In this document: in pieces, positions 25,229 to 42,740 of the stretch | Layout: every line of letters starts with the position of its first letter | Numbering within the stretch: position 1 is the first letter of the stretch | Assembly: GCA_029858565.1 (NCBI GenBank) | Contig: JAOUEV010000004.1 | Location: forward strand, 67,157 to 131,156 | Direction: 5' to 3' | From: Nitrospirota bacterium | GTDB lineage: Bacteria; Nitrospirota; UBA9217 | DNA: 64,000 bases | The notes under the pieces: generated by a model | The model's database searches: none | What the model saw: only the letters and a program-made list of their open reading frames with translations | What the model was told of the DNA's origin: nothing | Made by a program: the position numbers and the translations under genes

Positions 25229-27462
25229 ATGCAAACGCAGGAACAGGAAGTTCATCTGCTCGATTACTGGAGGGTGCTGGTCAAGCGACGCCAGATCGCA
25301 TTGACGTTCTTTGCTATCCTAGTGGGGCTCGTGGCGCTGTATTCGATCATCGCAACGCCGATCTACCGGGGCACTACCCAGATCCTTCTAGAGCTGGAGA
25401 AAAATCCCGTTATGACATTTACCGAGGGCGGCGGGGCCTTCATCCAGATGCGGGAGTCCTCTGAGTTCTATAAGACACAGATCGAGATACTCGGAAGCCG
25501 CTCCTTCGGTGACCGTGTGGTACGGAAGCTCCAACTGGACAAGAACCCCTATTTCCTTGCACGCAAGGAAAAGATCGCTGGAGGCATCCTAGAATGGATT
25601 GCAAAGCATGCTAGGTCCTTTTTCTCCGGAAGGGAAAAGCGCAGAATCCTATTCAACTGGCAAGTGTCCGTGAAGAAGCCGATGCGTCGATCACCACCGA
25701 CATCCTGAAAAATATGGAGGTTGAGATCGGCAAGGGAAGCAACATTCTGAAGATCTCATATTCGTCCGAGAACCCCACCGTCGCCGCGGCCATGGCAAAC
25801 GGCATCGCGAACAGTTATATCGAGCATTCTCTGGACATTCGGGTAAAGCCGTTCCGGGATGCGGTGGAATGGCTGTCTGCGCGCATGGTCGAATCACGCG
25901 CCAAAGTGGAGGATTCAGAAAGGATCGTTCAGGGATACAAAGAGGTGAAAGGGATCGTTTCGTTTGAGGGCAAAGAGAATGTAATTACCCAGAAACTTCA
26001 GGAACTCGTGACCCAGCTGGTGCAAACGGAAAGTAAGAGGCAGGAGTCCGAGGTCCGCTATCAGCAGATAGAATCTGTGATCGAAAAACCGGAACTGCTG
26101 GCCACAGTGCCGGATATCATGAACAACATCGTGATACAGGGACTGCGGAACGAGGAACTCACGATGCACAAGAGGATCTCCGAGCTGTCAGACAAATACG
26201 GTCCCAAGCATCCCCAGATGATCAAGGCGAGGACGGAGCTGGAAGCGATCCGGCGCAATCTGTTGTCCGAGGCCCGCAAAATGCTGAAAGCCGCTCGTGC
26301 GGACCTCGATATCGCACGGGGGCGGGAACGTTCCCTGCGAAAGGCCATCGACGACCAGAAAAGGGAAGTGCTCGATCTCAGCAGGAAGGCGATCGAGTAT
26401 GAGGTCATCGCGGGCGAAGCCGTGAGCAACAGGCAGTTCTATGAACTTCTGCTCAAAAAGCTCCAGGAAGCGTCGCTTTCCAGCGGTATCATCGCGACCA
26501 ACGTGCAGGTCGTTGACGGCGCAACGGTTCCTGATGCACCTGCATCCCCTCGAAAGTTATTGAATATCCTGATAGCCTCTGTGTTCGGTCTGTTCGGCGG
26601 TGTTTTTATGGCGTTCTTTGTAGAGTATCTCGACGACAGCATCAAAACGCCCGATGACATCGAGAGCGTTCTTTCGGTGCCTTTCCTCGGCTATGTTCCC
26701 GCAACGACCCAGGAGGAAGGGCCGATCTACATGTTCTCGGGACCCCGCGCCGCGATCGCGGAGTCCTACCGGACAATCCGTACCAGCATTATGTTGTCGT
26801 CCACTTTGGAAAAACCGCTGCAGGTCCTTCTGGTGACCAGTTCCACGCCGAACGAAGGTAAAACCACTACAGCAGCGAACCTGGCGGTCGCCATGGCCCA
26901 GATGGGCGAGCGGGTGCTGTTGATCGACACGGACATGCGGCGGCATAACCTGCACAAAGTGTATGGGATTGACAACCTGATCGGCATCAGCGATCTGATC
27001 ATCGATCACGCAAACCTGGATATGGCGTGCCGTACGCTTTCGCATATTCCGAACTTCAGCGTCATTACAGGCGGGACGCTCACGCCGAACCCGTCGGAAC
27101 TACTCGGTTCGAACAGTATGAAGGAGGCTGTTGCGATGCTCCGGGCGCGCTATGACCGCATCATCCTGGACTCGCCACCCGTGATGGCGTTCTCCGACTC
27201 CCTGGTCCTGTCGCGTCTTGCCGACGGCGTCATTTTCGTCGTATGGGGAGGCGTGACATCGCGGGGGCATATCCAAAAGTCGCTCAATGCGATCGCGGGT
27301 GTCGGCACCCGCCTGCTGGGAATCGTGCTGAACAATGTGAAGATAACGGCCAAGGCCTATTCCTATTACCATCCCTATTACAACTACTACTATTACGGCG
27401 AGCACCGCGAGGGTGAGGACAAGGGCAAGAGCAAGAAACGGTCGGTCTTCCGGAAAGGATGA
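25229..27462 (+). pseudogene. wzc: Polysaccharide co-polymerase / BY-kinase Wzc, split by a one-base frameshift (real lesion or assembly error)
   Basis: ORF 25229-25708 is the Wzz-like N-terminus. ORF 25714-27462 has the coiled coil, TM, Walker A TSSTPNEGKTT, DTDMRR, DSPP and a Tyr cluster. The downstream frame is open back to 25615. Confidence 0.85.
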
Positions 27463-28241
27463 TCGACCTGCACTGTCATATCCTTCCGGGCATTGACGAC
27501 GGTCCGGCGACGATGGGCGAATCGCTGGATATGTGCCGGATCGCTTACGAGGATGGCATCCGGACGATCGTCGCGACGCCTCACTTCATGCGGGGGGAGC
27601 AGGAGTATCTTCCGTCGCGGGTCAGGGCGGAGTTCGAGGCCCTGGTGACGGAAGTGTGTAGGCAGGGGATCGGGATCGATCTCCTGCTGGGGGCTGACGT
27701 CGCGGTCACGCCGGAAACGCCGCTCTATCTGCGGCAGGTCCCGCAGCTGACACTGAACGGCACGGGCAGGTATTTCCTTGCCGAACTCCCCCATGAAGCC
27801 GTTCCTCTGAACTGGGACCGGTTCCTGCTTGCCATGGCACAGCAGGGGATGGTTCCGATCCTGACGCACCCTGAGCGGCATCGATGGTTCCTGAAGCGTC
27901 CTGACGCTTTATACGATTTTGTCGGCGGCGGAGGCCTGGTCCAGGTGACAGCGATGAGCCTTACCGGAGAGAACGGGGAAGAGGTGCGCCGATTCTGCTG
28001 CTCCCTGCTGCAACGGGCCCTGGCACATGTGATCGCGACGGATGCCCATGCGCCGGCAGGCCGAGCCCCGCTCCTTGCAAAGGCGGTGGATGCTGCCGCA
28101 CGGGTGATCGGCGCGGAAGAAGCGTATCGCATGGCATCGGAGACGCCCCGAAGGATCCTGCGGGGGGAGATGCTGGACCTGGCGGGGCCGAGGAGAGTGC
28201 AGGAAAGGGTTCCATGGTACAGGAGACTGCTCGGCGCGTGA
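27459..28241 (+). CDS. PHP-family tyrosine-protein phosphatase (CpsB/CapC)
   Basis: MIDLHCHILPGIDDG, ATPH, THPER, ATDAH. Confidence 0.92.
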   Translation: MIDLHCHILPGIDDGPATMGESLDMCRIAYEDGIRTIVATPHFMRGEQEYLPSRVRAEFEALVTEVCRQGIGIDLLLGADVAVTPETPLYLRQVPQLTLNGTGRYFLAELPHEAVPLNWDRFLLAMAQQGMVPILTHPERHRWFLKRPDALYDFVGGGGLVQVTAMSLTGENGEEVRRFCCSLLQRALAHVIATDAHAPAGRAPLLAKAVDAAARVIGAEEAYRMASETPRRILRGEMLDLAGPRRVQERVPWYRRLLGA

Positions 28242-29671
28242 GTGAGAAGGACGGCCGGACCGGGTATGACCGGATCATCGAAGGCGGGGTGCAGGTCCTC
28301 GTCGTGGCAACGCCATTGGCCTTCGGCACGGTCCATGACTGGTCGTCGTCGGTCATGGAGATCATTGTATTCATAGTCTTCGGCGCATGGTCCGTGAAGT
28401 CGGGACTACGGTTCGGTGCGGGAATGTCGTGGCCGCTGCTGGCGCTCCTTACCGCTGGACTGACCCTTCCGCTTCTCCAGATCGTCCCGCTTCCCGCCGG
28501 GATCGTCCGGCTGGTCTCGCCGTCCCTCGTAGACCTGTATACGCAGGTTGGCGCGCCGGGGCAGGAGGGGTGGATGCCGCTTAGCATGAATACCCGCGCC
28601 ACGATCGAGGAATGGTTCCGGATCACGGCGTACGTCCTGATCTTCATCGTTGTCGCCAGTCATTATACGACGACTGGGCAGGTGAAGAAGCTCTGCAGGA
28701 CGATCGTGGCGGTTGGAGCGTTCCTCACGGTCTTCGCGGCACTGCAATTCGCAACCTGGAACGGCAAGCTGTACTGGGTCTTCCCGGTCCGGGAGGAGCT
28801 TGCAGCGGCCGGGCACCGGTTCTGGGGGCCGTACATTAACCGGAACCACTTTGCAGGCTATCTGGCGATGGTCGTGCCGATAGCGTATGCACTGTTTCTC
28901 CATAGGATCGCCGTGAAGCAGCAGGCTTCGTCGCGACAGTCACAGGGCTTTACGCAGCAGCTGCTGATACTTACCTCCAGCGTTTCGCTGACCGTGATGG
29001 GGCTGTCATCGATCGCGATGATCGCGGCCATATTCGGGAGCTTCTCCCGGGGAGGCATCGTCGCTTTTACCGCTGGTACGGCATGCTTTTCCTTGATGGT
29101 CCTGTCGCGCCGATCGACGCGGAGTGTGGCAGGAGCGTTCGCGCCGATTGCTGCGATTCTCCTGGTCAGCATCATGGCCCTCCTGTGGCCCCGCGTGGAG
29201 CACCGATTCGAAGCGATCACGGACGTGGAGAGGATAAAACGTTTCGATATCTGGAAGGACGCCGGCGGCATACTGTATGATTTCCCGATCCTCGGGACCG
29301 GCTTGGGAACGTTCCGGTTCGCCTATCCCCGTTACCAGACGGAGAACACGGCGCTGCAGTTCGATCATGCGGAAAATGACTATCTGGAACTCGCCACGGA
29401 GCTCGGGAGCGCGGGTGTTCTGCTAGCGCTGGGAACAGCAGCCGCGTATCTGGGGGCGGTGTATCCGGCATGGAGACAGCGGAAGAACAGGTTCGTCCTG
29501 CTTCTGACAGCTGGTGGGATCGCTTCCTGCTGTGCTCTGGCTGTCCACGGCGCAGTGGACTTCAATTTCCGGATCCCGGCGAACGCTCTTCTCTTCAGTA
29601 TCATCGCCGGTATCACGATAGCGACCGCCAGGAACGTGCGCAGCGCGAAAAGGCGTGATCATGCGGTCTGA
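28238..29671 (+). CDS. O-antigen ligase / Wzy_C family membrane protein
   Basis: GPYINRNHFAGYL, SFSRGG, R..IW, P.LGTGLGTF, HAENDYLE, H..VDFNF.IPAN. Confidence 0.88.
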   Translation: MSEKDGRTGYDRIIEGGVQVLVVATPLAFGTVHDWSSSVMEIIVFIVFGAWSVKSGLRFGAGMSWPLLALLTAGLTLPLLQIVPLPAGIVRLVSPSLVDLYTQVGAPGQEGWMPLSMNTRATIEEWFRITAYVLIFIVVASHYTTTGQVKKLCRTIVAVGAFLTVFAALQFATWNGKLYWVFPVREELAAAGHRFWGPYINRNHFAGYLAMVVPIAYALFLHRIAVKQQASSRQSQGFTQQLLILTSSVSLTVMGLSSIAMIAAIFGSFSRGGIVAFTAGTACFSLMVLSRRSTRSVAGAFAPIAAILLVSIMALLWPRVEHRFEAITDVERIKRFDIWKDAGGILYDFPILGTGLGTFRFAYPRYQTENTALQFDHAENDYLELATELGSAGVLLALGTAAAYLGAVYPAWRQRKNRFVLLLTAGGIASCCALAVHGAVDFNFRIPANALLFSIIAGITIATARNVRSAKRRDHAV

Positions 29672-30506
29672 CAAGAACAGCGCAGCAGGGAAAGGCCACC
29701 GACTGCTCTTCCTTGCCGGTGTCCTGTGCATTATCGCCTCTCTCTGCGTTTTCCCTGTCCGTGTGCTGGTGGGCGCTCTCTTTTTTGCGAATGCCCAGGC
29801 CCTGATGCAGACCGGCGCCGGAACGCTCGCGGATAGTCCGACCAGTGAAGGTCCTTTCGCGGGAGATCCCGTGGAGATCCAACGGCAGTTGGAGAGCGCT
29901 TTAGCGGCGGACCCCGGGCAGGCGCGGTATTCCAAGGCGCTGGCGGACCTACACTTCAAGCTCGGTAAATGGTCGGAGGTCATGGCCGTGGTCTCCGGCT
30001 CCGAGGTCATACACGGTTTCGACGCGACGAAGCACTACGCAAAAGTACAGGAACATCTGCGCCATGCCATTGAGCTGGAACCGTTCAATGCGGGGCATTA
30101 TCTGGCGTTCGGCATGCTGCAGCTTCAGAACGGAGAAACGGCGGCAGCACAGCACTTCGCAACAGCAAATGCCCTGCGGCCGGTGGACGTTGTGCAGCGG
30201 TACATTATTGCAAGAGGATACCTTCTCGCCCACTTGAATGATCACGCTCTTGCTGAAGCGCGTGCCATGGCATCGAATGATGACAGCTATCGCCTTCCGG
30301 AAGGGGCCGTACGCAGGGACTTTGCAAAGACAGCGGCCGATGAAACTGAGTCGTCCGTGAAGAACAGTTATCTCTATAGGGCGCTCGAGATCGCCTGGCG
30401 CGCGTCAGACAGGGACCGGATGGTAGTGCGAAGCATCGTCCCGCTGAACGATGAGGCGCTGGAGGTTGCCGACCGCTTCTTCGAGGATAAGGGGCTGGAT
30501 GAGTAG
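29655..30506 (+). CDS. Hypothetical TPR-like protein with N-terminal TM segment
   Basis: Helical AL..DP / AI.LEP repeats. Overlaps the ligase gene. Confidence 0.6.
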
Positions 30507-31194
30507 GCAACGGATTGGGAGAGAAGTCTTGAACGAAACGCCAGGGAAAGGCACCAATACGGTCTGGCATCATGCCACGGTCCAGCGCAAGAACCGCGAA
30601 CAGCTGAACGGCCACCGCAGCGTGGCATTGTGGTTCACCGGCCTGTCCGGCGCCGGCAAGTCCACGCTGGCCCACGCCGTGGAAGAGCGGCTGCATGCGC
30701 TCTGGTGCCGGACCTACGTCTTTGACGGCGATAACGTCCGGCAGGGCCTGTGTTCGGATTTGGGCTTCACGAAGGACGACCGCAGCGAGAACATCCGAAG
30801 AATCGGGGAAATGGCCAGACTGTTCGTGGATGCAGGCATCATCGTCATGGCCGCGTTCATTTCCCCTTTCCGCGCGGACCGGGTGCGTGTCCGGGGCAGC
30901 ATCGGGAATGACGACTTCATCGAGATCTACTGCAAGTGTCCGGTCGAAATATGCGAGCAGCGCGACATCAAGGGACACTACCGGCGCGCCCGGAGCGGCG
31001 AGATCAAGGAGTTCACGGGCATCTCGTCGCCCTACGAAGAGCCGGTGGCGCCGGAACTGGTGCTGGAGACGGGAACGCGGTCCCTGGAGGAATGCGTGGA
31101 TGCTGTCATGGCCTATCTGGTCAGCCGGGGAATCGTCACCAGGGCATTCCCGGAGGACGTCCGGCGCAACGGGGAACAGGAGGATGCGGGATGA
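30499..31194 (+). CDS. cysC: Adenylyl-sulfate (APS) kinase
   Basis: [49 protein letters not shown]. Confidence 0.95.
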
Positions 31195-32405
31195 GCAAGG
31201 GGAAGGTGGTGATCCTGGGAGGGGACGGGTTTTGCGGCTGGCCGACATCGCTCTACCTGTCCCACCATGGGTACGACGTGACGATCGTCGACAATCTCAG
31301 CAGGCGGAACATCGACAACGAGCTCGAGGCGTATTCGCTCACGCCGATCCAGCCCATGGGGACGCGGCTCGCGGTCTGGACGGAGCGGACGGGCAGAACG
31401 ATCTCCTTTGTGAACATCAACGTGGCGGAGAACTACCATCGCCTCCTGACGCTGCTCATGGAATTGCAGCCCGTAGCCGTGGTGCATTTTGCGGAGCAGC
31501 GCGCAGCGCCCTACTCCATGAAGAGCGCCTACCACAAACGGTATACGGTCAATAATAATATCAACGCCACCCATAATCTGCTCTGCGCCATAGTGGAGTC
31601 CGGCCTCGATACCCATGTGGTGCACCTAGGGACTATGGGGGTCTATGGGTATGGCACAGCGGGAATGGAGATCCCCGAGGGATACCTGAAGGTTCTTGTC
31701 CGGGCCGAGGGGCTCGAGAAGGAACTGGAGATCCTTTATCCAGCAAACCCCGGCAGCATCTATCACATGACCAAGACGCAAGACGCGCTGCTGTTCTATT
31801 ACTACAACAAGAACGACGGCTTGCGGATCACGGACCTGCACCAAGGGATCGTCTGGGGGACCAACACGGACGAGACGCTTCTAGACGAGCGGCTGATCAA
31901 CCGCTTCGATTACGACGGTGATTACGGGACCGTCCTGAACAGGTTCCTGATGCAGGCGGCGATCGGCCACCCCCTGACCGTACACGGAATGGGGGGGCAG
32001 ACCAGGGCCTTCATCCATATCCGGGACACGGTGAAGTGTATCAAACTTGCCATCGAGAACCCTCCGGCGAAGTTCGAGCGGGTGCAGATATTCAACCAGG
32101 CAACGGAGACCCACACGGTGCAGGTCCTGGCGGAAAAGATCGCGGCCAAGACGGGGGCGAGGATCGTGCAGCTCGCCAATCCTCGTATCGAGGCTCCGGA
32201 GAACGACCTGCGGGTGTCCAACAAGAAGTTCCTGAATCTGGGGTTGAACCCGGTAACGCTCAATGACGGCCTGCTCGACGAGGTCATGCAGATTGCGTTC
32301 AAGTACAAGGACCGCTGCGACCGGTCGAAGATCCTGTGTACGTCGAAGTGGCGGGCGGATATCGATCTGGAGAACATCGTCAGTATCGACCAGAACGATA
32401 GGTGA
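31191..32405 (+). CDS. sqdB: UDP-sulfoquinovose synthase (SqdB/SQD1, extended SDR)
   Basis: [70 protein letters not shown]. Confidence 0.92.
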
Positions 32406-32496
32406 GCGAAGGTCTGGTCGCGCCGACATCGCGAGAGAATATTCCCTTGAGGCTGATGGCCCAACGTGGTCCGGCTTCGTATGCTGAGGTTGAAGA

Positions 32497-32970
32497 ATGA
32501 TGCAAGTGGTCAGGTTGTTGTTCCGATTGAGATTGCGTATTCATAGGATATTCTGGAGGATGCGTCTCGCAAGCCTTGGAAAAGGATCCACGATCTATCC
32601 GTATGTGGTTATCCACGGGGCGCAACATGTCGAGATCGGCAGCCGTGTCTCAATCGCGGAATTCGTGCATGTCTGGGGAGGTGGAAAAGTAATCATTGGC
32701 GATAATTCGATCATTGCTTCTCATGCTGCGATTACTTCAGTTACCCATGACATCAAGGCCTCCGTCTTGTATCGTGATACGGTCAAGAAGATGCCGGTGA
32801 AGATAGGGAAAAATGTATGGATAGGATCAGGGGCGGTCATCATGCCGGGAGTGAACATCGGCGACAATTCGGTCGTGGGCGCTGGAGCTGTTGTGGACAG
32901 AGATGTTGAGCCAAGCACGGTTGTTGTCGGCATCCCGGCTAGATTGTTGAGGAAGATTGCTGATGCATAG
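32497..32970 (+). CDS. Hexapeptide-repeat O-acyltransferase
   Basis: Left-handed beta-helix repeats: PVKIGKNVWIGSGAVIMPGV.IG...VVGAGAVV..DV.....VGIPAR. Confidence 0.9.
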   Translation: MMQVVRLLFRLRLRIHRIFWRMRLASLGKGSTIYPYVVIHGAQHVEIGSRVSIAEFVHVWGGGKVIIGDNSIIASHAAITSVTHDIKASVLYRDTVKKMPVKIGKNVWIGSGAVIMPGVNIGDNSVVGAGAVVDRDVEPSTVVVGIPARLLRKIADA

Positions 32971-33895
32971 GGCAGTTGGTATGGTGGCTTGTCCTTCGTG
33001 CGGACAGAGGACTGCAGAAAGAATAGGGGCTATTTATAGTACTGCTGGTCAGAAAGACGCTGGTGGTAAATCGATCGACGACGAAGCCGCATTATGGCGT
33101 TGTCGGGAATGTTTTTTATTGTTTCGGCATCCGGCTCTGCCACAGGAAGAGTTGAACAGCTTCTATGTAACGGGGTCTCGGCCGGGATGGAGCTATCAGC
33201 CAGCTTTGCGCACAGATTGGCAGACCGCAAAACATCTTATCCATTCTGTTCTGGGTCGGGGAACGGTCGTGGACATCGGTTGTTTTGACGGAACCTTTTT
33301 AGCACAACTCGGGTCATCGTATGAGAAATACGGCGTCGAACCGAATGAAAAAGCGCGATCGGCAGCCCGGGAGAAGGGGATCCATATCCTTGCCCGTGAT
33401 GTTGAAGAGTTCTGCTCGTTGGGGAGACAATACGATATTATTGTGGCTTTCGATGTTGTCGAACACTTTGCCGATCCCCTTGGCCTGCTTGTGAAGCTCG
33501 AACGATCCCTTGCCCCTCGGGGCTTGATCATCCTGTCTTCTGGAAATGCAGACGCTCTGCCCTGGAGATTGATGAAAGGTCGTTATTGGTATTGCTCGTT
33601 GCCGGACCACGTCTCGTTTATCAGTCCTCCGTGGGTTCGGCAGGCAGCTCGCAAATCAAATCTAACGGTCATTAGCATGACACGGATCAGCCATGCAATC
33701 ACGCGTTTTAGGTATCTGCAGGTTGTTGCGGGATTCATGATGAGCGCGATCTACCTGATATCTCCCCATCTGATACGCATGCTGAGAAAGATCAAAAAGG
33801 CCGTCACCGCTGGCCGCATTGCGATGGATGAGTTCGCTCCGCCGGTCTGGAGAGGAGTAAAGGATCATCTGCTAGTTGTTTGCGAGAAAAAGTGA
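32963..33895 (+). CDS. Class I SAM-dependent methyltransferase with N-terminal Zn ribbon
   Basis: CPSC...CREC, VVDIGCFDG, YGVEP, FDVVEH..DP, PDHVSF. Confidence 0.85.
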   Translation: MHRAVGMVACPSCGQRTAERIGAIYSTAGQKDAGGKSIDDEAALWRCRECFLLFRHPALPQEELNSFYVTGSRPGWSYQPALRTDWQTAKHLIHSVLGRGTVVDIGCFDGTFLAQLGSSYEKYGVEPNEKARSAAREKGIHILARDVEEFCSLGRQYDIIVAFDVVEHFADPLGLLVKLERSLAPRGLIILSSGNADALPWRLMKGRYWYCSLPDHVSFISPPWVRQAARKSNLTVISMTRISHAITRFRYLQVVAGFMMSAIYLISPHLIRMLRKIKKAVTAGRIAMDEFAPPVWRGVKDHLLVVCEKK

Positions 33896-34062
33896 GGAGG
33901 GTGTGACGGCTCGAAGTTGACTCGTGCTGTGGTGGCGGCTATGCTGCGCGTGAAGGGCTAATCGATTATCGCGGTTTTCGATGCGGATCTCCGGTCCTGA
34001 AGGACGCCATCGTATAATCTAGCGTATAATTCGGCATGTTTCTAGAAAGGTGAGAGTTTGTT

Positions 34063-35592
34063 GTGGAAGACAAGCAGGCTGTGACCCAAAATGCTTTCTA
34101 TGCAGTGCTGCAGGTCGTGCTGTCGGGCGTCATGCTCTTCCTTTTTTATCGATATCTGTATTCGGTAATCGGTATTGAACAGGTCGGGATCTGGTCGCTG
34201 ATCCTGGCGATGACGTCACTTTCGAGTATCGCCAACCTGGGTTTTGGTGGAAGTCTTGTGAAGTATGTTGCTCAGTATCACGCCAGGGGAGATCAGGATG
34301 CGATCAATGATGTTGTGGCGACAGCCGTTATCACCGTAGGCATCGCGGTGGCAACGGTTTTAATCCTGGCATACCCGTTCGCTGAAGCTCTGGTCGGAAT
34401 GGTTGTTCAACGACAGTATGCGGAAAGAGCGGCTTCGCTGCTGCCCTACGCTATCGTATCTTTGTGGATCGGATCTCTCGGAAACATGTATGCTGCGGTA
34501 CTGGAGGGCTATCATCTGGCTTATCTGAAGAGTGTGATATTTTTGGCGGGGCAGGCACTGAACCTTCTTTTGAGCATGCTGATGGTGTCACACCATGGTC
34601 TCTTCGGGCTTGCGTATGCACAGATCATACAAGCAGCATTCGTGGTTGCTGCAACCATGATCGTTCTCAAAACAAAGGTGCCGAGCATGAGGGTCGTTCC
34701 TGGTATGTGGAAAAAAGAACGCTATCGGGAGATGAAGAATTATGGTTTTAACGTGCAGGTGAATTCTGTTGCGATCATGCTGTATGATCCGATCACGAAG
34801 GCGCTCCTGTCGAAATATGGTGATATTTCGATCGTTGGCTTCTTTGAGATGGCGAATAGGACAGTTCTCCTGTTCCGAGCCGTGCTGGTCAACGCCAACC
34901 GGGTCTTGGTGCCGACGATCTCACGCGCGATGGAAAGCGTCAACGTCCCCCTGAATAAAATTTATAGTCTGTCCTATGAATTGATCTTGTATCTATCGGT
35001 GCCGATATTTGCCGGCCTTATTGCTTTCGCGCCCTCTGTCGCCCATCTGTGGACCGGAGCATATAATGACCGGCTTTCAAGCATGATCATGATCCTCTCT
35101 CTGGGATGGTTCGTGAATATTCTTGCCGGTCCCGCATATTTTATGAATATGGGAACGGGAGATCTGTCGATGAACACGATTAGCCATGTGGTCATTGGAC
35201 TCGGGAATCTCCTGTTGGGACTTGCGGCCGGAGTGCTCCTCGGCGGACAATACATAGTGTGGACGTGGACATTGTCGCTCGGCGCAGGAAGCCTGATGAT
35301 CCCGATCAGCTATCAGCGAAAGAACAGCCTCCCTCTATCGTCACTGCTGCCAGCTACGAGCAGGATGCTCGCACTTTCCTGTACAGTCGGTGCCGTATTG
35401 TCGTTGCTGGTATATCATGGATATCATGAAAGCCTGCCGTTCTTCCAGTTGCTGGCAGGAACGGTTCTTGTGTATTGCGCGATCATCTTTCCTTCTCTTT
35501 GGAAGCATCCTGCGCGCAGCAGGCTTTTTGAGATGACGGGTCACTTGCGTGGCTTGAGTGCAGGCAAAGATCAAAATCATGAAGATGCGTAA
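34063..35592 (+). CDS. wzx: Wzx-type oligosaccharide flippase
   Basis: About 12-14 TM segments, G.EQ.G.W.L, A.LGFG..L.KYVA. EPS cluster context. Confidence 0.82.
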   Translation: MEDKQAVTQNAFYAVLQVVLSGVMLFLFYRYLYSVIGIEQVGIWSLILAMTSLSSIANLGFGGSLVKYVAQYHARGDQDAINDVVATAVITVGIAVATVLILAYPFAEALVGMVVQRQYAERAASLLPYAIVSLWIGSLGNMYAAVLEGYHLAYLKSVIFLAGQALNLLLSMLMVSHHGLFGLAYAQIIQAAFVVAATMIVLKTKVPSMRVVPGMWKKERYREMKNYGFNVQVNSVAIMLYDPITKALLSKYGDISIVGFFEMANRTVLLFRAVLVNANRVLVPTISRAMESVNVPLNKIYSLSYELILYLSVPIFAGLIAFAPSVAHLWTGAYNDRLSSMIMILSLGWFVNILAGPAYFMNMGTGDLSMNTISHVVIGLGNLLLGLAAGVLLGGQYIVWTWTLSLGAGSLMIPISYQRKNSLPLSSLLPATSRMLALSCTVGAVLSLLVYHGYHESLPFFQLLAGTVLVYCAIIFPSLWKHPARSRLFEMTGHLRGLSAGKDQNHEDA

Positions 35593-36280
35593 GCTGCTTA
35601 AAAACATCACGCATTCCTTTGGCATCGATGTGCGCAGGCATGCCGGGAACAAATATGTCTGGCTTCAATCGCAGAACATCAGGACCGTGCTCGATATCGG
35701 TGCAAACGAGGGACAGTTTGCCCTCGAGCTTCGTCAGTATTTGCCTGATGCGGCCATCCATTCATTTGAGCCGGTTCGAGATGCATTCTGTCTCTTGGAA
35801 AAGAATCTGAAAGGTAAGCGAGGTCATTTTCTCTACAATTACGCACTGGGAGAGGCGGCTGAGGCCATCCCCATCCGGAGGAACACATTTTCGCCTGCCA
35901 GCTCGTTCTTGAGGTCAAGCGAGCTGTCGAAAGCTGCTTACCCTTTCCTCGAAGAGATCGCAAAGGAAGTCGTAGATGTCAGAAAACTTGATGATGTCTA
36001 TCCGTTGCTTTATCAAGATCGCGAGCTTATGATAAAAATGGATGTCCAAGGGTACGAGGATAGGGTCGTTCGAGGAGGCCATAGCGTTTTTCAACAGGCG
36101 AAGATCGTCATTTCTGAGGTCTGCTATCAACCACTCTATGAGGGGCAGCCCCTGTTCGCTGATCTGTATGAGCTGTTCCTGGGGATGGGGTACCACTACT
36201 GCGGAAATATCGAGATGACCCAACATAGAAGAACGGGAATGCCTCTCTTTGCCGATGCGGTTTTTATGAGGGGAGATTAG
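35579..36280 (+). CDS. FkbM-family methyltransferase
   Basis: VLDIGANEGQF, HSFEP, KMDVQGYE, Y.GQPLF. Confidence 0.9.
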   Translation: MKMRKLLKNITHSFGIDVRRHAGNKYVWLQSQNIRTVLDIGANEGQFALELRQYLPDAAIHSFEPVRDAFCLLEKNLKGKRGHFLYNYALGEAAEAIPIRRNTFSPASSFLRSSELSKAAYPFLEEIAKEVVDVRKLDDVYPLLYQDRELMIKMDVQGYEDRVVRGGHSVFQQAKIVISEVCYQPLYEGQPLFADLYELFLGMGYHYCGNIEMTQHRRTGMPLFADAVFMRGD

Positions 36281-36281
36281 T

Positions 36282-37586
36282 ATGCGGGCATCGCTGTATC
36301 CCCCCCTCCTGCTGATATCGTTGAGTTATCTTGTCCCTCGCCTGTCTCACGTAGGCGGCGCTATCCCTATGATTATCCAGGCTGGTATCGTGTTGGTAGT
36401 GTTCTATTATTCGCTCGTGACGCTATTTCTTCGGTCTTCCCGCTACGCACCGCGGACCGGCAAAGGGCTGTATCGTAGCCAAGTCAAGTATATCGTATTG
36501 TTTACCGTTTTTGTAGTCCTGAGCATTATCGCCATGCTGAAGGGTCTTGAACGCGAATACGGTCTGCGGTATGTCATTGGAGACACGTACAAGTTCCTGA
36601 TACCGCCAGTTTGCATTTATTATTTTTACCTTGTAATACGAAAAAGCGCGGAATACGAGGATATCTTGTATGCTTATTATTGGCTCGCAGTGGTCATGCA
36701 GGTGCTCATGCTTGTGCCGTATATGGCAGGAATTCTGAAAACAAATGACAGGATATTTTCTGTCAATAATTTGCCCCTTGTGCTGATGCTGGGTTACTTT
36801 TTCAGGGAACGGAGCAGGCGTGTTCGTCCTGCACAATGGCTGATGCTGTTCACCATTCCTGTATATATCTATTTCACCCAGTCGCTTTCACTGTTTGTAT
36901 CTCTCAGCGTGGTGCCTCTCTTGACGATTGTGCTCTACCGATATAGTGGGAGGCGGCTGGCCCTCTTTCTTGTGGGCATTCTAATTTTTTCATGCACGAT
37001 GATATATGTTATGCTCTATCGGGGCGATTTCATCGGAGAGATTCTCCCGAGAAAGTATGCGGATTATTACCTCTCAGGAAAGTTCGTGGGATTGCAGAAC
37101 GCGGCGTCAACAGAGGCGAAACTGGAGATGATCGCCGGAAGCAGGTTTGCTGAACCGAAAGGGATTGTCGGGGAAATATCGGATGGTAAGCTGATGACCA
37201 TGCTTGTCGGTGCGGGGATGGGAAGTACGTTTACCTCGACATCGGTGACCGGGCTGAAGAGGACATGGACAGGCGAGGATCACTTCGTGCATGCTGGGGT
37301 GACGGAATCTCTGCTGCGGACGGGAGTGCTGGGAGCGGTTCTTTACGTGCTCATTTCCCTCCTCTTTGTAGGGGTAGGACTGCAGATGCGTAGATATAAT
37401 ATCATCGCGGCGTTGAGCGCTTCAAAAGTGTTGACGGATTTCCTGTTCATGATCGTGACGACATGGCTGGGGAATGAATTTATGGTATTCTTCCTTGTAG
37501 CTTACTTGCTCAGTTTGAGCAGGGAACAGTGGGAGGTCCGGCGCGCTGAAGATGTTTTGCAGCCGACGGTTGGTATGGCCATATGA
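36282..37586 (+). CDS. Putative Wzy polysaccharide polymerase
   Basis: Divergent polytopic membrane protein with late periplasmic loop G.GMG...H....E.LLRTG.LG. Cluster context. Confidence 0.6.
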   Translation: MRASLYPPLLLISLSYLVPRLSHVGGAIPMIIQAGIVLVVFYYSLVTLFLRSSRYAPRTGKGLYRSQVKYIVLFTVFVVLSIIAMLKGLEREYGLRYVIGDTYKFLIPPVCIYYFYLVIRKSAEYEDILYAYYWLAVVMQVLMLVPYMAGILKTNDRIFSVNNLPLVLMLGYFFRERSRRVRPAQWLMLFTIPVYIYFTQSLSLFVSLSVVPLLTIVLYRYSGRRLALFLVGILIFSCTMIYVMLYRGDFIGEILPRKYADYYLSGKFVGLQNAASTEAKLEMIAGSRFAEPKGIVGEISDGKLMTMLVGAGMGSTFTSTSVTGLKRTWTGEDHFVHAGVTESLLRTGVLGAVLYVLISLLFVGVGLQMRRYNIIAALSASKVLTDFLFMIVTTWLGNEFMVFFLVAYLLSLSREQWEVRRAEDVLQPTVGMAI

Positions 37587-38386
37587 TGCCGGCGAGGCTT
37601 AAAGTGAGTGTCATTACGGTCTGCCTCAATGCCGTACGAGAGCTCCCGGAGACCTTGCGAAGCGTCAGGGAACAGACATATCCCCTCATGGAATCGATCG
37701 TCATTGACGGAGGGTCAGAGGACGGAACGCTCGAGTATCTTCAGTCGCTAAATCCGCAGCCGGACGTCCTGATATCAGAGCCTGATCACGGGATCTACGA
37801 TGCCATGAATAAGGGCATCGTTGCTGCGACAGGCGACTACATCATATTCATGAATGCCGGTGACTCCTTCCGGCATCCTTCGGTGCTGAAGGACGTGTTT
37901 GGCGACGAGTTTGTGGTCTCTCAGAGGCCGAAAATCATTTCCGGACGGGTGCAGTTCTCTTTGAAGGGGGAGCTGCTGGACTTGCATCGCCCTCGAACAG
38001 TAGGGCAGGAAGGACCGGGATTGCCCCATCAGGCAACGTTCATGGCTGCTGATCTGCTGAAGAACAACCGATTTGACACGCATTACCGATTCGCAGGGGA
38101 TTACGAGCTCTGGCGCAGGTTAAAGAAGCAAGGGCTGTTCTTGGTCCATTATATTGACCGGACCGTTTCCGTTTTTTCACTTGGAGGAGTTTCGACATCT
38201 GCGAAGAACGATCCTATGCGCTATCTGGAGCGGGCTTTCGTGGATTCCCGGTATGCCGGCAGGTTCTCGCTATGGCAGATGATCGTGTTGGCCGGCAAGA
38301 CGGTGATACGGCGCATGCTGTACACGATGATGCCTCATAGGTTATATCATATCCTCCTTCGAAAGAGCTGGATATTCCGGTCATGA
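37583..38386 (+). CDS. Glycosyltransferase family 2 (WcaE-like)
   Basis: VSVITV..N, IDGGSEDGT, SEPD.GIYDAMNKGI, FMNAGD, PHQATF. Confidence 0.92.
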   Translation: MMPARLKVSVITVCLNAVRELPETLRSVREQTYPLMESIVIDGGSEDGTLEYLQSLNPQPDVLISEPDHGIYDAMNKGIVAATGDYIIFMNAGDSFRHPSVLKDVFGDEFVVSQRPKIISGRVQFSLKGELLDLHRPRTVGQEGPGLPHQATFMAADLLKNNRFDTHYRFAGDYELWRRLKKQGLFLVHYIDRTVSVFSLGGVSTSAKNDPMRYLERAFVDSRYAGRFSLWQMIVLAGKTVIRRMLYTMMPHRLYHILLRKSWIFRS

Positions 38387-39288
38387 GCGTTCAGGAGGGC
38401 GGGATCAGATTGCGGCAGGAAGACCGGCAAACTCATGGGGGCGGATGGCGCAGGATATTCGCATTCATTCTGATTAAACTGACTGTTGTTATTCTTTGTT
38501 CGAACGGCCTGGCCATCGCAAAGCCGGGGAGCAATGACCGCCTCGTCCTGATGTGGCAGGTCCAGAACACCGTCTCCGACGAGGAGCTGGTGGTCCTGAA
38601 GCGTAAGGGCGTCAATCTCGTGCAGTCCTTTCCGCTGATAACCTGGCGAGACGCCGAGATCCGGTCCTATCTCGACCGGATGCATAAGTTCGGATTTGGC
38701 GTCGTCATGACGGTTGTGTCCATGTCCGAAAAAGGGCCGTCGGGTTGGTCCATCAGGGAATCAGCACTGGTGGGCTTCATCCGGAAATGGCGGACCCATC
38801 CTGCCGTGTTCGCATGGCATACTTTTGATGAGCCGAGCAATCGGGGCGTGGCCGAAGTGCCGAAAGAGCTCCAGGAGCGCGTTTATGGACTGGTGAAGTC
38901 TATCGATCCAGACCATCCGGTCATGATCTCGTGGAACGGTACCTCTTTCTGGCACTACCGGTTCTTTTCAGAGCAGGCGTTCGATGTGCTGGATCTGCAC
39001 GCTCATATCACTGATACGGTCGGACGCCGGCAGGCGGCGCTGATAAACGAGTTCCGCAAACGGAGAGCCAGGGATTACCCAGTCATTGTGACGATAGCGA
39101 CGGTCTATCGTCCCGGGAACAAGCCGCTTCCGGAAGATGCCGTCATTCAGCAATATCGCTACTTCTTCGGTGAGAACGTTGTGACACGGAACATCGGCTT
39201 TTACGGCTGGGACCTGTCGAGGAATATCGGTATCCGCAAGGACACGAGTCTCCTGTCGCAGTTTCTGGACCTGGAGCTGACAAAGTAG
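38383..39288 (+). CDS. Putative secreted glycoside hydrolase-like TIM-barrel protein
   Basis: Hydrophobic N-terminal signal. HPAVFAW..FDEP, K.IDP.HPV and D.L..H motifs typical of clan GH-A. Confidence 0.6.
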   Translation: MSVQEGGIRLRQEDRQTHGGGWRRIFAFILIKLTVVILCSNGLAIAKPGSNDRLVLMWQVQNTVSDEELVVLKRKGVNLVQSFPLITWRDAEIRSYLDRMHKFGFGVVMTVVSMSEKGPSGWSIRESALVGFIRKWRTHPAVFAWHTFDEPSNRGVAEVPKELQERVYGLVKSIDPDHPVMISWNGTSFWHYRFFSEQAFDVLDLHAHITDTVGRRQAALINEFRKRRARDYPVIVTIATVYRPGNKPLPEDAVIQQYRYFFGENVVTRNIGFYGWDLSRNIGIRKDTSLLSQFLDLELTK

Positions 39289-39339
39289 GGAACAATCGGA
39301 TGCTTTTCCCGGCAAGGAACCGGGAAGGGGGGCGGAGAA

Positions 39340-40173
39340 ATGCTTCCGGATTTTATCTGTGTCGGGCCCGGCAGAGCGGGTACGTCGTGGCTGTATGAGA
39401 TCCTGCGCGAACATCCGGGGATCTGCATGGCAAGGAACATCAAAGAAACGCAGTATTTCGACCGGCACTTTGCTAAGGGTGTCGGATGGTACGGTGAGTT
39501 CTTTCAAGATTGTCCGGGGGCCGCGGTCAAGGGCGAGATATCGAACCGCTATGTGTTCGATCCGCGTGTCGCGGAACGCATTTCCTCGCTTCTGCCCCAG
39601 TGCAAGATCATCATTTGTTTCCGCAATCCCTATGAGAGGATCCAGTCTGTCTACTCGTTCAAGATCCGGGAGGGGGTGCTTACCTGCGGGTTCCTTGAAG
39701 CGATACAGCGAGACCCCCGGTTGATTGAGGAGAATCGCTACTTCACGGTTGTGGAGCCCTATTATCGCCTCTTTGGCAGGGACCACATCTTCCCGTTGTT
39801 CTTCGAGGATATCTCCGGGAGACCTGAACAGTTATGCCGGAACCTCTTCACGTTCCTGGGCGTGGACGCGACCGCCCAGCCTCCGAGCATGCGCGAGAAG
39901 ATCAACCGCGCTATTATCCCGCGTTTGCCGGGGATCGCGCCGCTGACAAAGGGCACGGCGAGAGTGCTCCGGACCATGGGCATGCATCGGATGCTTACCT
40001 GGGCGAAACGCTCGGAGTGGCTGAAGCAGCTTCTCTTCAAGGAGCATGGATATCATGAGGAGAACCTTCTGACACAGGAAGCGAGAGCGCTCATCGATCC
40101 GGTGGTGGGACCTGAGATCGACCGGCTGCAGGTGCTGATAGACAAGGATCTGTCTCACTGGAAGCGTTCTTGA
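39340..40173 (+). CDS. PAPS-dependent sulfotransferase
   Basis: 5'-PSB motif LPDFI.VGP.RAGTSWLY..L..HP, KE..YF, GE.S..Y, and 3'-PB motif RNP.ER..S.Y. Confidence 0.9.
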   Translation: MLPDFICVGPGRAGTSWLYEILREHPGICMARNIKETQYFDRHFAKGVGWYGEFFQDCPGAAVKGEISNRYVFDPRVAERISSLLPQCKIIICFRNPYERIQSVYSFKIREGVLTCGFLEAIQRDPRLIEENRYFTVVEPYYRLFGRDHIFPLFFEDISGRPEQLCRNLFTFLGVDATAQPPSMREKINRAIIPRLPGIAPLTKGTARVLRTMGMHRMLTWAKRSEWLKQLLFKEHGYHEENLLTQEARALIDPVVGPEIDRLQVLIDKDLSHWKRS

Positions 40174-40180
40174 ACAACCT

Positions 40181-41380
40181 TTGGACCATTCTATGCATAT
40201 GCTCTCGTTGACAGCGGTATACGTTGTTTTTACAGCTCTCGCGCTCATCTTATACACGTGGCTCGGTTACCCGATCCTCCTGAAAGTGCTGTTGACCTTC
40301 AGGAAGAAGACAACATCCGGCAAGGGCAGTGAGCAAAGAGGCGGCGCATTTCCTTCGGTCACGGTGATACTGCCAGTGTATAATGCGTCCAGCAGGATCG
40401 AGGCAAAGCTGAGGAACACTCTGTTGCTCGACTACCCTGCGGATAAGCTTGATGTGATCGTGGTCTCCGACGGGTCGTGTGATGATACGGAAGATAAGAT
40501 GCGGGCTCTGACCAGCGATTTCGTGCGGCTGGTCGTGCTCAACAGGAATCAAGGGAAGAGCAGCGCCCAGAACCGGGCTGTCCGGGAGGCACGGGGAGAG
40601 CTGGTCCTGTTCACGGACGTTGATTCTGAGTTGGACCGGGAGTATCTGCAACGCATTGTCCCGGCGTTCGCAGACACCCAGGTGGCAGGTGCTGGAGGCA
40701 TGGCAGTCCTGCGGGTGGACGGAGGCCATGTTTCCAGGTCGCTGGGAGCCTATTTACGATTGGAGCATTTCCTGCGCTGTGCTGAATCCGAGCTTGGCAT
40801 GCTCCATACACTGCCGGGATGGGGATTTGTCGTCAGAAAGAGCGAGTTCGTTCCGCTTGCTTCCGATACCGGCGACGATATGATCATCCCGCTCGATCTG
40901 GCCGTGCGGAAAAAAAGGTGTGTTCTTGTGCCGGAAGCGGTTGTCGCCGATGCAATGCCGTCGAGCATCCGCGGTGAGTTCCGCGCTCGCCGGAGGATCA
41001 CGCTGCGAAACCTGACCGGCATCATGCGCCGTCGGATGCTCTTGAATCCTTTTGCCTTCCCGAGGATGGCGTTCGCACTCTGGTCGCATAAGATATTGCG
41101 CTGGCTTACTCCGGTCTTCTTGATCCTGCTGCTCCTGAGCACGGCATTGTGGGAGATTTCTGCGGGTGATCCTCTTGCGGCGGTTTTGCTTGCTGGTCAA
41201 CTTGTTTTCTATGCAGCGGGCGGCCTTGGTATCCTGCTTGCGCTGAAAGACATCCGTGTTCCGGTCATCGGTTTCTTAGCATCGTTCCTCCTGTTCAATA
41301 TTGGATTCCTTTCAGGGTTGATAAGCTATCTGAAAGGGGAAAGGGTATTTTCCTACACGAACCATGGCGACACGGTTTAG
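40181..41380 (+). CDS. Glycosyltransferase family 2 with TM segments
   Basis: P.V.VI.PVYN, LDYP, VSDGS.D.T, GKS.AQN, FTDVD, DD, R.RRRI, SHKILRW. Confidence 0.9.
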   Translation: MDHSMHMLSLTAVYVVFTALALILYTWLGYPILLKVLLTFRKKTTSGKGSEQRGGAFPSVTVILPVYNASSRIEAKLRNTLLLDYPADKLDVIVVSDGSCDDTEDKMRALTSDFVRLVVLNRNQGKSSAQNRAVREARGELVLFTDVDSELDREYLQRIVPAFADTQVAGAGGMAVLRVDGGHVSRSLGAYLRLEHFLRCAESELGMLHTLPGWGFVVRKSEFVPLASDTGDDMIIPLDLAVRKKRCVLVPEAVVADAMPSSIRGEFRARRRITLRNLTGIMRRRMLLNPFAFPRMAFALWSHKILRWLTPVFLILLLLSTALWEISAGDPLAAVLLAGQLVFYAAGGLGILLALKDIRVPVIGFLASFLLFNIGFLSGLISYLKGERVFSYTNHGDTV

Positions 41381-42740
41381 CAGCTACAGCAGAGCATTTC
41401 TGTCTCTGGGGGACGCGGCGATCATCCTCCTCTCAGCCTATGTCGCGTTCGCGCTGAGGTGGTGGACCTACGTGGACGTCATGGAGTACCGCGCCGGCGC
41501 GACCATCCTCTTCGTTCTCATTTACGGCATCAGCTTCGCCATTCTGGACATACATAATTATACTGAATCGTTTCGGTCGACCGCCTACCTGACGCATTTC
41601 ATCATTACGGTGCTGATGGCTACGGGGGTGGTGACGGTGCTGTTCTACGTTATGCCCCTCTGGAAGTTCGGGAGAGGGGTGCTGTTGATCAACATGGCAG
41701 TCGTCACCATCCTGGTCTATTCCTGGCGCCTGCTTTTCGAGGTCCTCTTCAAGTTCGCGCGGAAACCCCTGCGCATGATCGTTATCGGCTCCGGATTCTC
41801 GGGTAAGCATATCTACGACATCCTGCGGAAACATCCGGATGCCTTCACGGTCATCGGGTTTCTCGATGATGATCCCGGGCGTTCCGGGACCGGGATCGGA
41901 GAGCACCGAGTCCTGGGAGGAAGCGGCATGCTCATGGACCTGACTGAGCGGCGGGCGATGGACGCTGTGGTCATTGCGATCACCGGCAACAAGACACCCC
42001 GGTTGCTCACTGCCCTCGTCGACGCGAAAATGAAAGGCGTCGAGGTCTATGATATGCCGGACCTCTACGAGGAGATCACCGGCAAGCTGCCGGCCGATCA
42101 TATCGGCGACGCCTGGATGGCCTACGCGCGGTTCAAGGGGGTCAGGAGGAACCTCTACACCCTCCATCTCAAGCGCATCATGGACATCCTGCAGTCCGTG
42201 CTGGGACTCATCCTGTCCCTGCCGATCGCCATCATCGCGGCGATCGCGATCAAGCTCGATTCCCGCGGTCCGGTCCTCTACCAGCAGGCGAGAATGGGTA
42301 AGAACGAGTGTATTTTCACGTTGTGCAAGTTCCGCTCGATGCGGTCCGATGCCGAAGACGGCGCCGCCGTCTGGGCCTCGCCCGACGATCCCCGGATCAC
42401 GAGAGTGGGAATGTTCCTCCGCAAGACCCGGATCGATGAGATCCCCCAGATGTGGAACGTCCTCAAGGGAGAAATGAGCTTCATCGGACCCCGGCCGGAA
42501 CGACCCGAGTTCATCGCGCAGCTCAAGAAGGAAGTGCCGTTCTATTCTTTCCGGCACGCGGTCCAGCCGGGCATCACCGGCTGGGCGCAGGTCAACTACC
42601 GCTACGGCGCTTCGAAGGAAGACGCGCTGGAAAAGCTGCACTACGACCTTTACTATATCAAGAACCTCAGTTTCACTCTCGACATGCACGTGCTGCTCAA
42701 GACGATCCGTGTCGTCCTGTTCGGAAAAGGGGCACGGTAA
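41364..42740 (+). CDS. Priming undecaprenyl-phosphate glycosylphosphotransferase (WcaJ/WbaP family, PEP-CTERM-cluster-like)
   Basis: KR..DI, KFRSM..DAE, D.R.TRVG.FLRKTRIDE.PQ.WNVL.GEMSF.GPRPERP, PGITGWAQV. Confidence 0.93.
   Translation: MATRFSSYSRAFLSLGDAAIILLSAYVAFALRWWTYVDVMEYRAGATILFVLIYGISFAILDIHNYTESFRSTAYLTHFIITVLMATGVVTVLFYVMPLWKFGRGVLLINMAVVTILVYSWRLLFEVLFKFARKPLRMIVIGSGFSGKHIYDILRKHPDAFTVIGFLDDDPGRSGTGIGEHRVLGGSGMLMDLTERRAMDAVVIAITGNKTPRLLTALVDAKMKGVEVYDMPDLYEEITGKLPADHIGDAWMAYARFKGVRRNLYTLHLKRIMDILQSVLGLILSLPIAIIAAIAIKLDSRGPVLYQQARMGKNECIFTLCKFRSMRSDAEDGAAVWASPDDPRITRVGMFLRKTRIDEIPQMWNVLKGEMSFIGPRPERPEFIAQLKKEVPFYSFRHAVQPGITGWAQVNYRYGASKEDALEKLHYDLYYIKNLSFTLDMHVLLKTIRVVLFGKGAR

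Follow-up and report, generated by a model that had tools for sequence, protein, structure and literature searches.

Sulfoquinovose is usually treated as a membrane-lipid product of phototrophs, made by the SqdB-SqdX pair (SQD1-SQD2) of cyanobacteria and plants and by the SqdB-SqdD/C set of Rhodobacter and Sinorhizobium, pathways whose first enzyme recurs in the locus described here. According to the accessible part of a 2026 review of the aquatic sulfoquinovose cycle, SqdB of the sulfolipid route takes its sulfur from sulfite, and that part treats the SqdB-SqdX lipid route only, the words polysaccharide and lipopolysaccharide being absent from it (PMC13436972). In the archaeon Sulfolobus acidocaldarius, Agl3 provides uridine diphosphate (UDP)-sulfoquinovose for an N-glycan assembled on a lipid carrier and not for a membrane lipid (excerpts of PMC9549778 and PMC4388408), and the clusters for synechan (xss, Synechocystis) and for the sulfated capsules of Vibrio sp. 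KMM 8419 and Cobetia marina contain sulfotransferases of the type that uses 3′-phosphoadenosine 5′-phosphosulfate (PAPS) (excerpts of PMC8205485, PMC11641403 and PMC11766843). Here we describe a gene cluster of a Nitrospirota bacterium (assembly GCA_029858565.1, contig JAOUEV010000004.1, positions 67,157 to 131,156) that combines a Wzx/Wzy polysaccharide cluster with SqdB and a sulfotransferase, each of a known kind. We refer to the whole 64,000-nucleotide stretch as the window and number all positions within it.

The locus resembles each of these systems in part. It departs from the sulfolipid pathways in that its genome has no SqdX-like GT4 and no GT8, its sqdB lies in a Wzx/Wzy operon and is translationally coupled to cysC, and its host is not a phototroph. 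With the Agl3 system it would share the use of UDP-sulfoquinovose for a glycan built on a lipid carrier, but there the host is an archaeon, the product is a dolichol-linked N-glycan on proteins and a PAPS sulfotransferase is lacking, whereas the cluster described here is bacterial and would join Wzx/Wzy/Wza-Wzc to O-sulfation. With the synechan, Vibrio and Cobetia clusters it shares a sulfotransferase among polysaccharide genes, to which it adds a dedicated kinase for adenosine 5′-phosphosulfate (APS) as well as sqdB, a term with 0 occurrences in the available text of those three papers.

In the window, 26 plus-strand open reading frames (ORFs) between 20.5 and 45.8 kb form one co-oriented run with cysC and sqdB inside it (Table 1). 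These two genes meet in a true ATGA overlap (cysC TGA 31192-31194, sqdB ATG 31191-31193), and the possible cysC start at ATG 30499 overlaps by 8 nt with the stop of the preceding TPR gene (30504-30506). A preliminary description of this DNA had listed the ATGA junction, the sulfotransferase, an acyltransferase and two methyltransferases within a co-oriented Wzx/Wzy cluster, all of which we recovered in place, and it had seen no recognisable sulfolipid synthase in the window, where we likewise found no GT4 or SqdX-like gene. We consider it most likely, with a rough probability of 0.6, that the cluster makes a Wzx/Wzy-type heteropolysaccharide exported through Wza-Wzc, with a predicted repeat unit that carries sulfoquinovose (a C-sulfonate), at least one O-sulfate ester, O-acetyl and O-methyl groups. 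This reading draws on the gene identities and their layout, on the absence of recognisable sulfolipid glycosyltransferases, on the sulfur genes of the host and on the recurrence of sqdB in glycan clusters.

The window SqdB looks like a genuine UDP-sulfoquinovose synthase. Its residues 5-388 align with residues 3-383 of Arabidopsis SQD1 (1QRR, E 7.5e-97), and its NAD Rossmann motif, TMG and YHMTK fall on their SQD1 counterparts, [ST]MG...Yx3K being the signature tabulated for SQD1 and Agl3 (PMC8987622, Table 1 in the portion available). With one genome sampled per species, it is 67-82% identical to the best 80 of at least 583 relatives, the 80 loci that were kept, cyanobacteria (Moorena, Nodosilinea) among them. 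A quick maximum-likelihood tree with 84 rows places it as sister to the SqdB of a Nitrospirae metagenome-assembled genome (MAG; support 98), and both sit in an 11-row clade (support 100) that also contains five Chloroflexota SqdBs adjoining an SqdX-like, lipid-type GT4. SqdBs of glycan context are therefore interleaved with those of lipid context and do not form a separate enzyme subfamily, and since the window protein shares a clade with SqdX-adjacent SqdBs it is not a divergent paralogue. The genome holds one sqdB copy.

Two other loci of the phylum encode SqdB-like proteins of a different kind (L018:10379-11542 and L019:5244-6395), which are 40-42% identical to the window protein and belong to another family, as their very long branches of 3.3-3.5 substitutions per site indicate. 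Both genes directly follow one for a Polysacc_synt_2 (CapE/FnlA-like) dehydratase, and are flanked on their other side by further glycan genes, the next in L018 being one for a UDP-GlcNAc 2-epimerase; this family perhaps makes another modified sugar.

The genome (144 contigs totalling 3.9 Mb, with a marker-gene completeness of 100%) was searched for the glycosyltransferases of the sulfolipid routes. As stand-ins for SqdX we used four GT4 proteins encoded beside sqdB in a cyanobacterium, Pontibacillus, a Chloroflexota MAG and an uncultured bacterium (41-49% mutually identical); they carry GT4 domains, their best NCBIfam matches are glycolipid synthases below the cut-offs, and their label is inferred from sqdB adjacency and this lipid-GT4 profile, NCBIfam having no SqdX model. 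With these four as tblastn queries no SqdX-like gene was found in the genome, the best matches showing 26-29% identity and at most 77 bits, and a hidden Markov model (HMM) built from the stand-ins reached at most 94 bits in the genome vs 449-668 bits at 13 true sqdB-adjacent neighbours. The SqdD-type family GT8 (PF01501) had 0 matches in the genome. A search of the genome for sqdX and sqdD, proposed in the preliminary description, thus found neither; SqdC and SqdA were not searched.

We observed the placement of sqdB among glycan genes well beyond this genome. Of 401 genomes sampled evenly from the phylum, 10 have sqdB, this one counted, and they come from seven families. The context of 10 further sqdB loci was retrieved from 9 other genomes, and since all ten have GT2, GT4, phosphoglycosyl transferase (PGT) or Wzx genes around them, the arrangement is not a chance neighbourhood. 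An SqdX-like neighbour was found at 0 of these 10 loci, and a close SqdX-like gene in 0 of the 10 sqdB-bearing genomes (best match 126 bits and 33% identity, on another contig). Among 41 close relatives, one other genome has an orthologue (71% identity), flanked by GT2 genes in a Wzm/Wzt-type cluster, and no sqdB was found in three genomes of the same genus (86-97% complete). Outside the phylum, we scanned 9.5 kb around sqdB at 83 loci with home-made HMMs and required at least 3 glycan-assembly genes for a glycan cluster: 8 loci had such a set, 13 had an SqdX-like neighbour, 22 had one or two glycosyltransferases, and 40, a class to be read as uncertain, had none recognised. Polysaccharide clusters with sqdB were confirmed by Pfam in a Deltaproteobacteria MAG, Mariprofundus, a Gallionellaceae MAG, a Gammaproteobacteria MAG and two Rhodanobacter strains. 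A sulfotransferase accompanies sqdB in the Nitrospirae MAG whose cluster is most similar to that of the window (L020, in two frames) and in L021, L030 and L033, the match in L024 being weaker, so that the co-occurrence survey suggested in the preliminary description finds sqdB with glycan-assembly genes, often together with a sulfotransferase, in other phyla as well.

Several of these loci have features of their own. In L020, four PIN-domain genes and a gene for a 23S-rRNA-intervening-sequence protein lie upstream of sqdB (4200-9800), and the split sulfotransferase homologue occupies 14925-15751. Four loci (L029, L052, L076, L080), from one Deinococcaceae MAG and three uncultured bacteria placed beside Deinococcota rows in the SqdB tree, have the order GT2, sqdB, SqdX-like GT4. 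The two Rhodanobacter strains are cultured: in Rhodanobacter sp. DHG33 (L041) sqdB lies among GT2 genes with a UDP-galactopyranose mutase gene, an ABC exporter and a pilin gene, and in R. ginsengisoli KACC 11762 (L039) among GT2 genes with an acyltransferase and methyltransferases; over some 9.5 kb around sqdB, neither strain showed an SqdX-like gene.

The host is a sulfate-respiring sediment bacterium, a non-phototroph with dissimilatory sulfur genes. Its genome encodes Sat (302 bits), AprA (912 bits, above the cut-off) and DsrA/DsrB (564 bits), so APS and sulfite are central metabolites. A clear PAPS reductase is absent from the genome, where PAPS_reduct (CysH, CysD) yields one 23.6-bit match, and the PAPS made by CysC is therefore not a route to sulfite. 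The cluster's sulfotransferase is the sole match in the genome for both Sulfotransfer_1 and Sulfotransfer_3; among solved structures it is nearest to bacterial 3RNL (67.7 bits), heparan sulfate 3-O/N-sulfotransferases following at 35-49 bits. Its GPGRAGTSW near the N-terminus and its RNPYERIQS align with 3RNL and may correspond to the 5′-phosphosulfate-binding (5′-PSB) and 3′-phosphate-binding (3′-PB) loops for PAPS. The division of labour put forward in the preliminary description, in which CysC makes PAPS for the sulfotransferase, agrees with the lack of a clear PAPS reductase, with the single sulfotransferase and with a supply of sulfite by Sat and AprA. On these gene contents, an economical reading would be that the cluster contributes SqdB for C-sulfonation and, for O-sulfation, the missing step from APS to PAPS. 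Next to rpoD on another contig (C56:39078-39521; L101:1432-2097) lies one more, divergent APS-kinase-like gene with no sulfotransferase nearby; it scores 125 bits, under the TIGR00455 cut-off of 139.

Other sqdB loci carry a different sulfur gene. In the gammaproteobacterial Wzc/Wzx cluster (L033:7859-10009), SqdB and a PAPS-reductase domain (residues 46-219) share one frame of 716 aa, as confirmed by Pfam, and L024 and several actinobacterial loci have a similar reductase upstream of sqdB. The loci flagged for a reductase with SqdB are L033, L024, L057, L063, L086 and L087, the Pfam confirmation applying to L033 only; in four actinobacterial loci, frames of 695-782 aa have a reductase-like HMM match that begins 879-1158 nt before the SqdB match. 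The reductase-SqdB fusion suggests that sulfite is passed directly to SqdB.

Two GT2 proteins of the cluster are candidates for the sulfoquinovosyl transferase, the membrane-embedded protein at 40181 (GT2b), which we rank first, and the soluble protein at 37583 (GT2a), which we rank second. GT2b has its GT-A domain between an N-terminal helix and C-terminal helices. Genes like it occur in 107 of the 401 phylum genomes (E<=1e-25), yet its top four non-self matches (239-388 bits) all lie beside sqdB, the best in an sqdB-less genome reaching 201 bits. Homologues abut sqdB in L211, L213 and L215, three loci from three families, and lie about 5 kb off in L208 and L020. When the six sqdB-linked copies and the 16 nearest unlinked ones were placed in one tree (22 sequences), a branch set the linked copies apart, in two subclades (support 100 and 99); 0 of 500 label shuffles were as clustered, and in the one genome that has both a linked copy and an unlinked paralogue the two separate accordingly. 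This linked subfamily has so far been seen in this phylum only: GT2b-type genes did not turn up at sqdB loci in other phyla, the best match after L020 having 58 bits. At fifteen alignment columns all 6 linked copies share a residue that is rare among the 16 unlinked ones; no basic residue obviously suited to a sulfonate is gained at any of them, which is uninformative either way. One genome (G248) has two sqdB copies in separate glycan clusters (L210 and L211, 78% and 70% identical to that of the window), with a linked GT2b-type neighbour at only one of them.

The best solved match of GT2b is 6YV7 (GT2b residues 58-338 on chain residues 43-324), which we take to be a Pyrobaculum calidifontis mannosyltransferase with a minimal cellulose-synthase-like fold. 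Both proteins have a GT-A domain with flanking membrane helices; their similarity is low (70 bits), and the donor of GT2b would presumably be UDP-sulfoquinovose as opposed to the GDP-mannose of 6YV7. GT2 enzymes invert, so the predicted product is a beta-sulfoquinovoside, the anomer present in the Sulfolobus N-glycan, sulfolipid being alpha-linked. To our knowledge, the sulfoquinovosyl transferase of that N-glycan has also not been identified.

In Mariprofundus (L030), the gene directly downstream of sqdB encodes a homologue 54% identical to GT2a, and an FkbM gene lies upstream. Against GT2a as the partner of sqdB, homologues of 31-42% identity are common without sqdB, and 31-37% identical ones occur in sqdB-less relatives; among 80 metagenome loci that contain a GT2a-like gene (31-42% identity), 40 of which span 8 kb or more, 0 had sqdB. 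The grouping 'c4', from loose single-linkage clustering, had suggested a GT2a family shared by five sqdB loci, of which direct comparison left only L030 (54%). The proposal of the preliminary description that one of the GT2 proteins at 37583 and 40181 is the sulfoquinovosyl transferase can thus be refined in favour of the latter, which appears comparatively better linked to sqdB.

A Wzx/Wzy-type set is present, with a priming transferase, Wzx, Wza and Wzc (GNVR and kinase domain); candidates for Wzy are the Wzy_C protein at 28214 and the polytopic protein at 36282, which has no family match. The priming transferase (TIGR03013) and the deacetylase (TIGR03006) exceed the cut-offs of families of the XrtA/PEP-CTERM system. 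We do not file the cluster under that system, because exosortase XrtA was not found (TIGR03109, 0 matches in the genome) and the sole exosortase-family match in the genome (PF09721, 24.5 bits, on a different contig) is below the cut-off.

A pathway can be proposed in which the dissimilatory metabolism of the host would provide APS through Sat and sulfite through AprAB. SqdB would combine UDP-glucose with sulfite into UDP-sulfoquinovose, and CysC, translationally coupled to it, would convert APS to PAPS for the single sulfotransferase. With undecaprenyl phosphate as carrier, the priming transferase would begin a repeat unit; the membrane GT2 at 40181, or as a second choice the soluble GT2 at 37583, would add sulfoquinovose in beta linkage, and acetyl-, methyl- and sulfotransferases would decorate the unit, which would then be flipped by Wzx, polymerised by a Wzy-like protein and exported by Wza/Wzc. 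In this scheme we infer the acceptor of sulfoquinovose, its transferase and the composition of the polymer.

Some observations weigh against this pathway or against parts of it. The wzc gene is frameshifted in the record, its two frames overlapping around 25615-25708; an independently assembled contig from run X1, the sole public run with the region and probably its source sample, has one extra G after 25631 that restores the frame and is otherwise identical over 24000-42596, and the split is for this reason probably an assembly error and not a pseudogene. SqdB scores 332 bits on NCBIfam NF041015, under the cut-off of 575; this model seems narrow, since it is above its cut-off in 1 of 14 control genomes though matching in 12. 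The HMMs of the context survey have limited sensitivity, which leaves the class of 40 loci uncertain. As for GT2b, it lies 7.8 kb from sqdB in the window, the branch that unites the linked copies has only 78% support in the Shimodaira-Hasegawa-like approximate likelihood ratio test (SH-aLRT), the kin in the comparison of GT2b with sqdB are not independent, and 5 of the 9 other sqdB genomes of the phylum are without the linked subfamily, so that GT2b cannot be the only solution. It also has a weak GT21-like match (Glyco_transf_21, 22 bits, cut-off 21.7), and as a membrane protein it could glycosylate a lipid. We know of no characterised sulfoquinovosyl transferase for glycans, and both GT2 assignments are accordingly predictions.

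The last of these traits of GT2b leads to a reading that we regard as unlikely, in which GT2b is a sulfolipid synthase of neither the SqdX nor the SqdD type, acting on diacylglycerol or a similar acceptor, the sqdB-GT2b pair rides in envelope clusters and the sulfotransferase still sulfates a polysaccharide. Its membrane location and marginal Glyco_transf_21 match fit such a role, as do the three loci L211, L213 and L215, where sqdB and the GT2b homologue abut in the manner of sqdB-sqdX pairs; however, all six linked copies (6/6) lie in co-oriented clusters with PGT or Wzx (some with Wzy) and never alone, eight polysaccharide genes separate sqdB from GT2b in the window, the sqdB loci of other phyla have shown no gene of this type, and 6YV7, the nearest solved relative, presumably acts in N-glycan assembly and not on bulk lipids. 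Slightly less credible still is a periplasmic decoration, in which GT2b would load sulfoquinovose onto undecaprenyl phosphate (compare GtrB and ArnC) and the protein at 36282-37586 would transfer it outside the cytoplasm to a polymer or to proteins, so that sulfoquinovose would be a side chain and not part of the backbone. The 434-aa polytopic protein without a family match would be available for this, and the second, Wzy_C-family protein could be the true polymerase, but the protein has no detectable GT-C similarity and no homologue in other sqdB loci, no GtrA-like small flippase was seen, and the matches of GT2b to ArnC (about 31 bits), dolichol-phosphate mannose synthase (30 bits) and GtrB-type sll0501 (21 bits) are weaker than its match to 6YV7.

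That no sulfoquinovose is made at all, the SqdB homologue being a UDP-glucose 5,6-dehydratase or using another substrate or nucleophile and the polymer being O-sulfated only, we consider quite improbable. SQD1 and Agl3 do give UDP-glucose-5,6-ene without sulfite (PMC8987622, in the portion available), the window protein does not reach the NCBIfam equivalog cut-off, and distant SqdB-like paralogues occur in a different context (L018, L019). Against this, the window SqdB is nested among the SqdBs of sulfolipid producers, to which it is 67-82% identical, the divergent paralogues stand apart on their long branches, and the host, with AprA and DsrAB, has sulfite as a central metabolite. We therefore keep to the sulfonated and sulfated heteropolysaccharide as the preferred product. 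The polymer with both a C-sulfonate sugar and O-sulfate that the preliminary description envisaged is in keeping with a genome that lacks SqdX-like and GT8 genes and with the recurrence of sqdB amid glycan genes, and its chemistry stays a prediction.

Table 1. Genes of the co-oriented run and the matches on which their names are based.
Feature	Position	Strand	Matches and remarks
Lcl_C-domain protein, two FecR-domain proteins and BBP2-type outer-membrane barrel (weakly EpsL-like)	20507-24359	+	cluster opening
Wza-type outer-membrane polysaccharide export protein	24378-25193	+	Poly_export 79 bits; SLBB 92 bits; TIGR03028 EpsE 202 bits (below cut-off 263)
Wzc-type chain-length regulator/tyrosine autokinase, two frames	25229-27462 (25229-25708; 25714-27462)	+	Wzz 45, GNVR 47, AAA_31 52 bits; TIGR01007 178 bits vs cut-off 108
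CpsB/CapC-type phosphotyrosine phosphatase	27459-28241	+	PF19567 176 bits
Wzy_C-family membrane protein (polymerase or ligase)	28214-29671	+	PF04932 72 bits; 41% identical homologue in syntenic L020
TPR protein	29655-30506	+	TPR_19, TPR_17; homologue in L020
cysC, APS kinase (PAPS-making)	30499-31194	+	Pfam APS_kinase 212 bits; TIGR00455 262 bits vs cut-off 139; NF003013 295 vs 163
sqdB, UDP-sulfoquinovose synthase, 404 aa	31191-32405	+	328 bits to SQD1 1QRR
Hexapeptide-repeat O-acetyltransferase	32497-32970	+	Hexapep 70 bits; WcaF-/LacA-like, below cut-offs
S-adenosylmethionine (SAM) methyltransferase	32957-33895	+	Methyltransf_23 68.6 bits
Wzx flippase	34063-35592	+	Polysacc_synt 48.9 bits
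FkbM-family methyltransferase	35558-36280	+	TIGR01444 78 bits vs cut-off 38; 35% identical to a homologue in L030, where it lies directly upstream of sqdB
Multi-pass membrane protein, 434 aa; candidate Wzy polymerase or GT-C-like transferase	36282-37586	+	hydrophobic throughout
GT2a, soluble WcaE-like GT2	37583-38386	+	Glycos_transf_2 72.8 bits
Signal-anchored protein, probably clan GH-A TIM-barrel glycoside hydrolase (lead only)	38383-39288	+	50% identical homologue in L020
PAPS-dependent carbohydrate sulfotransferase	39340-40173	+	Sulfotransfer_1 (PF00685) 56.7 bits vs cut-off 22; Sulfotransfer_3 45.7 bits
GT2b, membrane-embedded GT2	40181-41380	+	Glycos_transf_2 78 bits; Glyco_trans_2_3 45 bits
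Priming polyprenyl-phosphate sugar-phosphate transferase	41364-42740	+	Bac_transf 230 bits; TIGR03013 444 bits vs cut-off 393
surE and pcm	42803-44220	+	between priming transferase and deacetylase
Polysaccharide deacetylase, XrtA-system type	44225-45163	+	TIGR03006 348 bits vs cut-off 276
Further methyltransferase	45105-45770	+	

The run is otherwise dedicated to polysaccharide genes and is interrupted by the housekeeping pair surE-pcm. Its G+C content is 0.50-0.53 over 32000-38000, from the acetyltransferase to GT2a, vs 0.56-0.62 on both flanks, which fits a swapped-in, serotype-like region. Two of its proteins had no matches even at E<=1, that of 36282-37586 in Pfam and NCBIfam and that of 38383-39288 in Pfam; the Atlas structure of the latter resembles clusters bearing GH42 and GH2_C (template-modelling score 0.63-0.72). 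A scan of 28.0-46.5 kb for promoters and terminators gave counts not above those of shuffled sequence (11 vs 10.6 and 20 vs 14.3). No RNA dataset is listed that covers 30499-40173, and the single listed DNA run probably represents the source sample.

In the full-text literature, whose coverage leaves out most subscription journals, we found no report of sulfoquinovose in a bacterial polysaccharide, and a slime polymer with both sulfonate and sulfate would probably be a chemistry not yet described for bacteria. The loci compared here point to a metabolic logic in which a cluster brings only the sulfur-activating step that its host lacks, an APS kinase in this case and a PAPS-reductase domain fused to SqdB elsewhere. 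We advance tentatively, as the less probable extension of these predictions, that UDP-sulfoquinovose is a regular donor for surface polysaccharides of non-phototrophic bacteria, that the Nitrospirota GT2b subfamily is the first glycan beta-sulfoquinovosyl transferase, and that sulfate-respiring sediment bacteria divert APS and sulfite into a C-sulfonated, O-sulfated polymer; with GT2b, a concrete enzyme subfamily is named as a testable candidate. If sulfoquinovose is indeed present in the extracellular polymers of anaerobic sediment bacteria, the sources of this abundant organosulfur sugar would be wider than phototroph membranes, the slime of such bacteria would be an unrecognised source of it in anoxic sediments, and the substrate range of sulfoquinovosidases and sulfoglycolytic bacteria would widen with it. 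Bacterial polyanions would then also include a sulfonate that sulfatases should not cleave.

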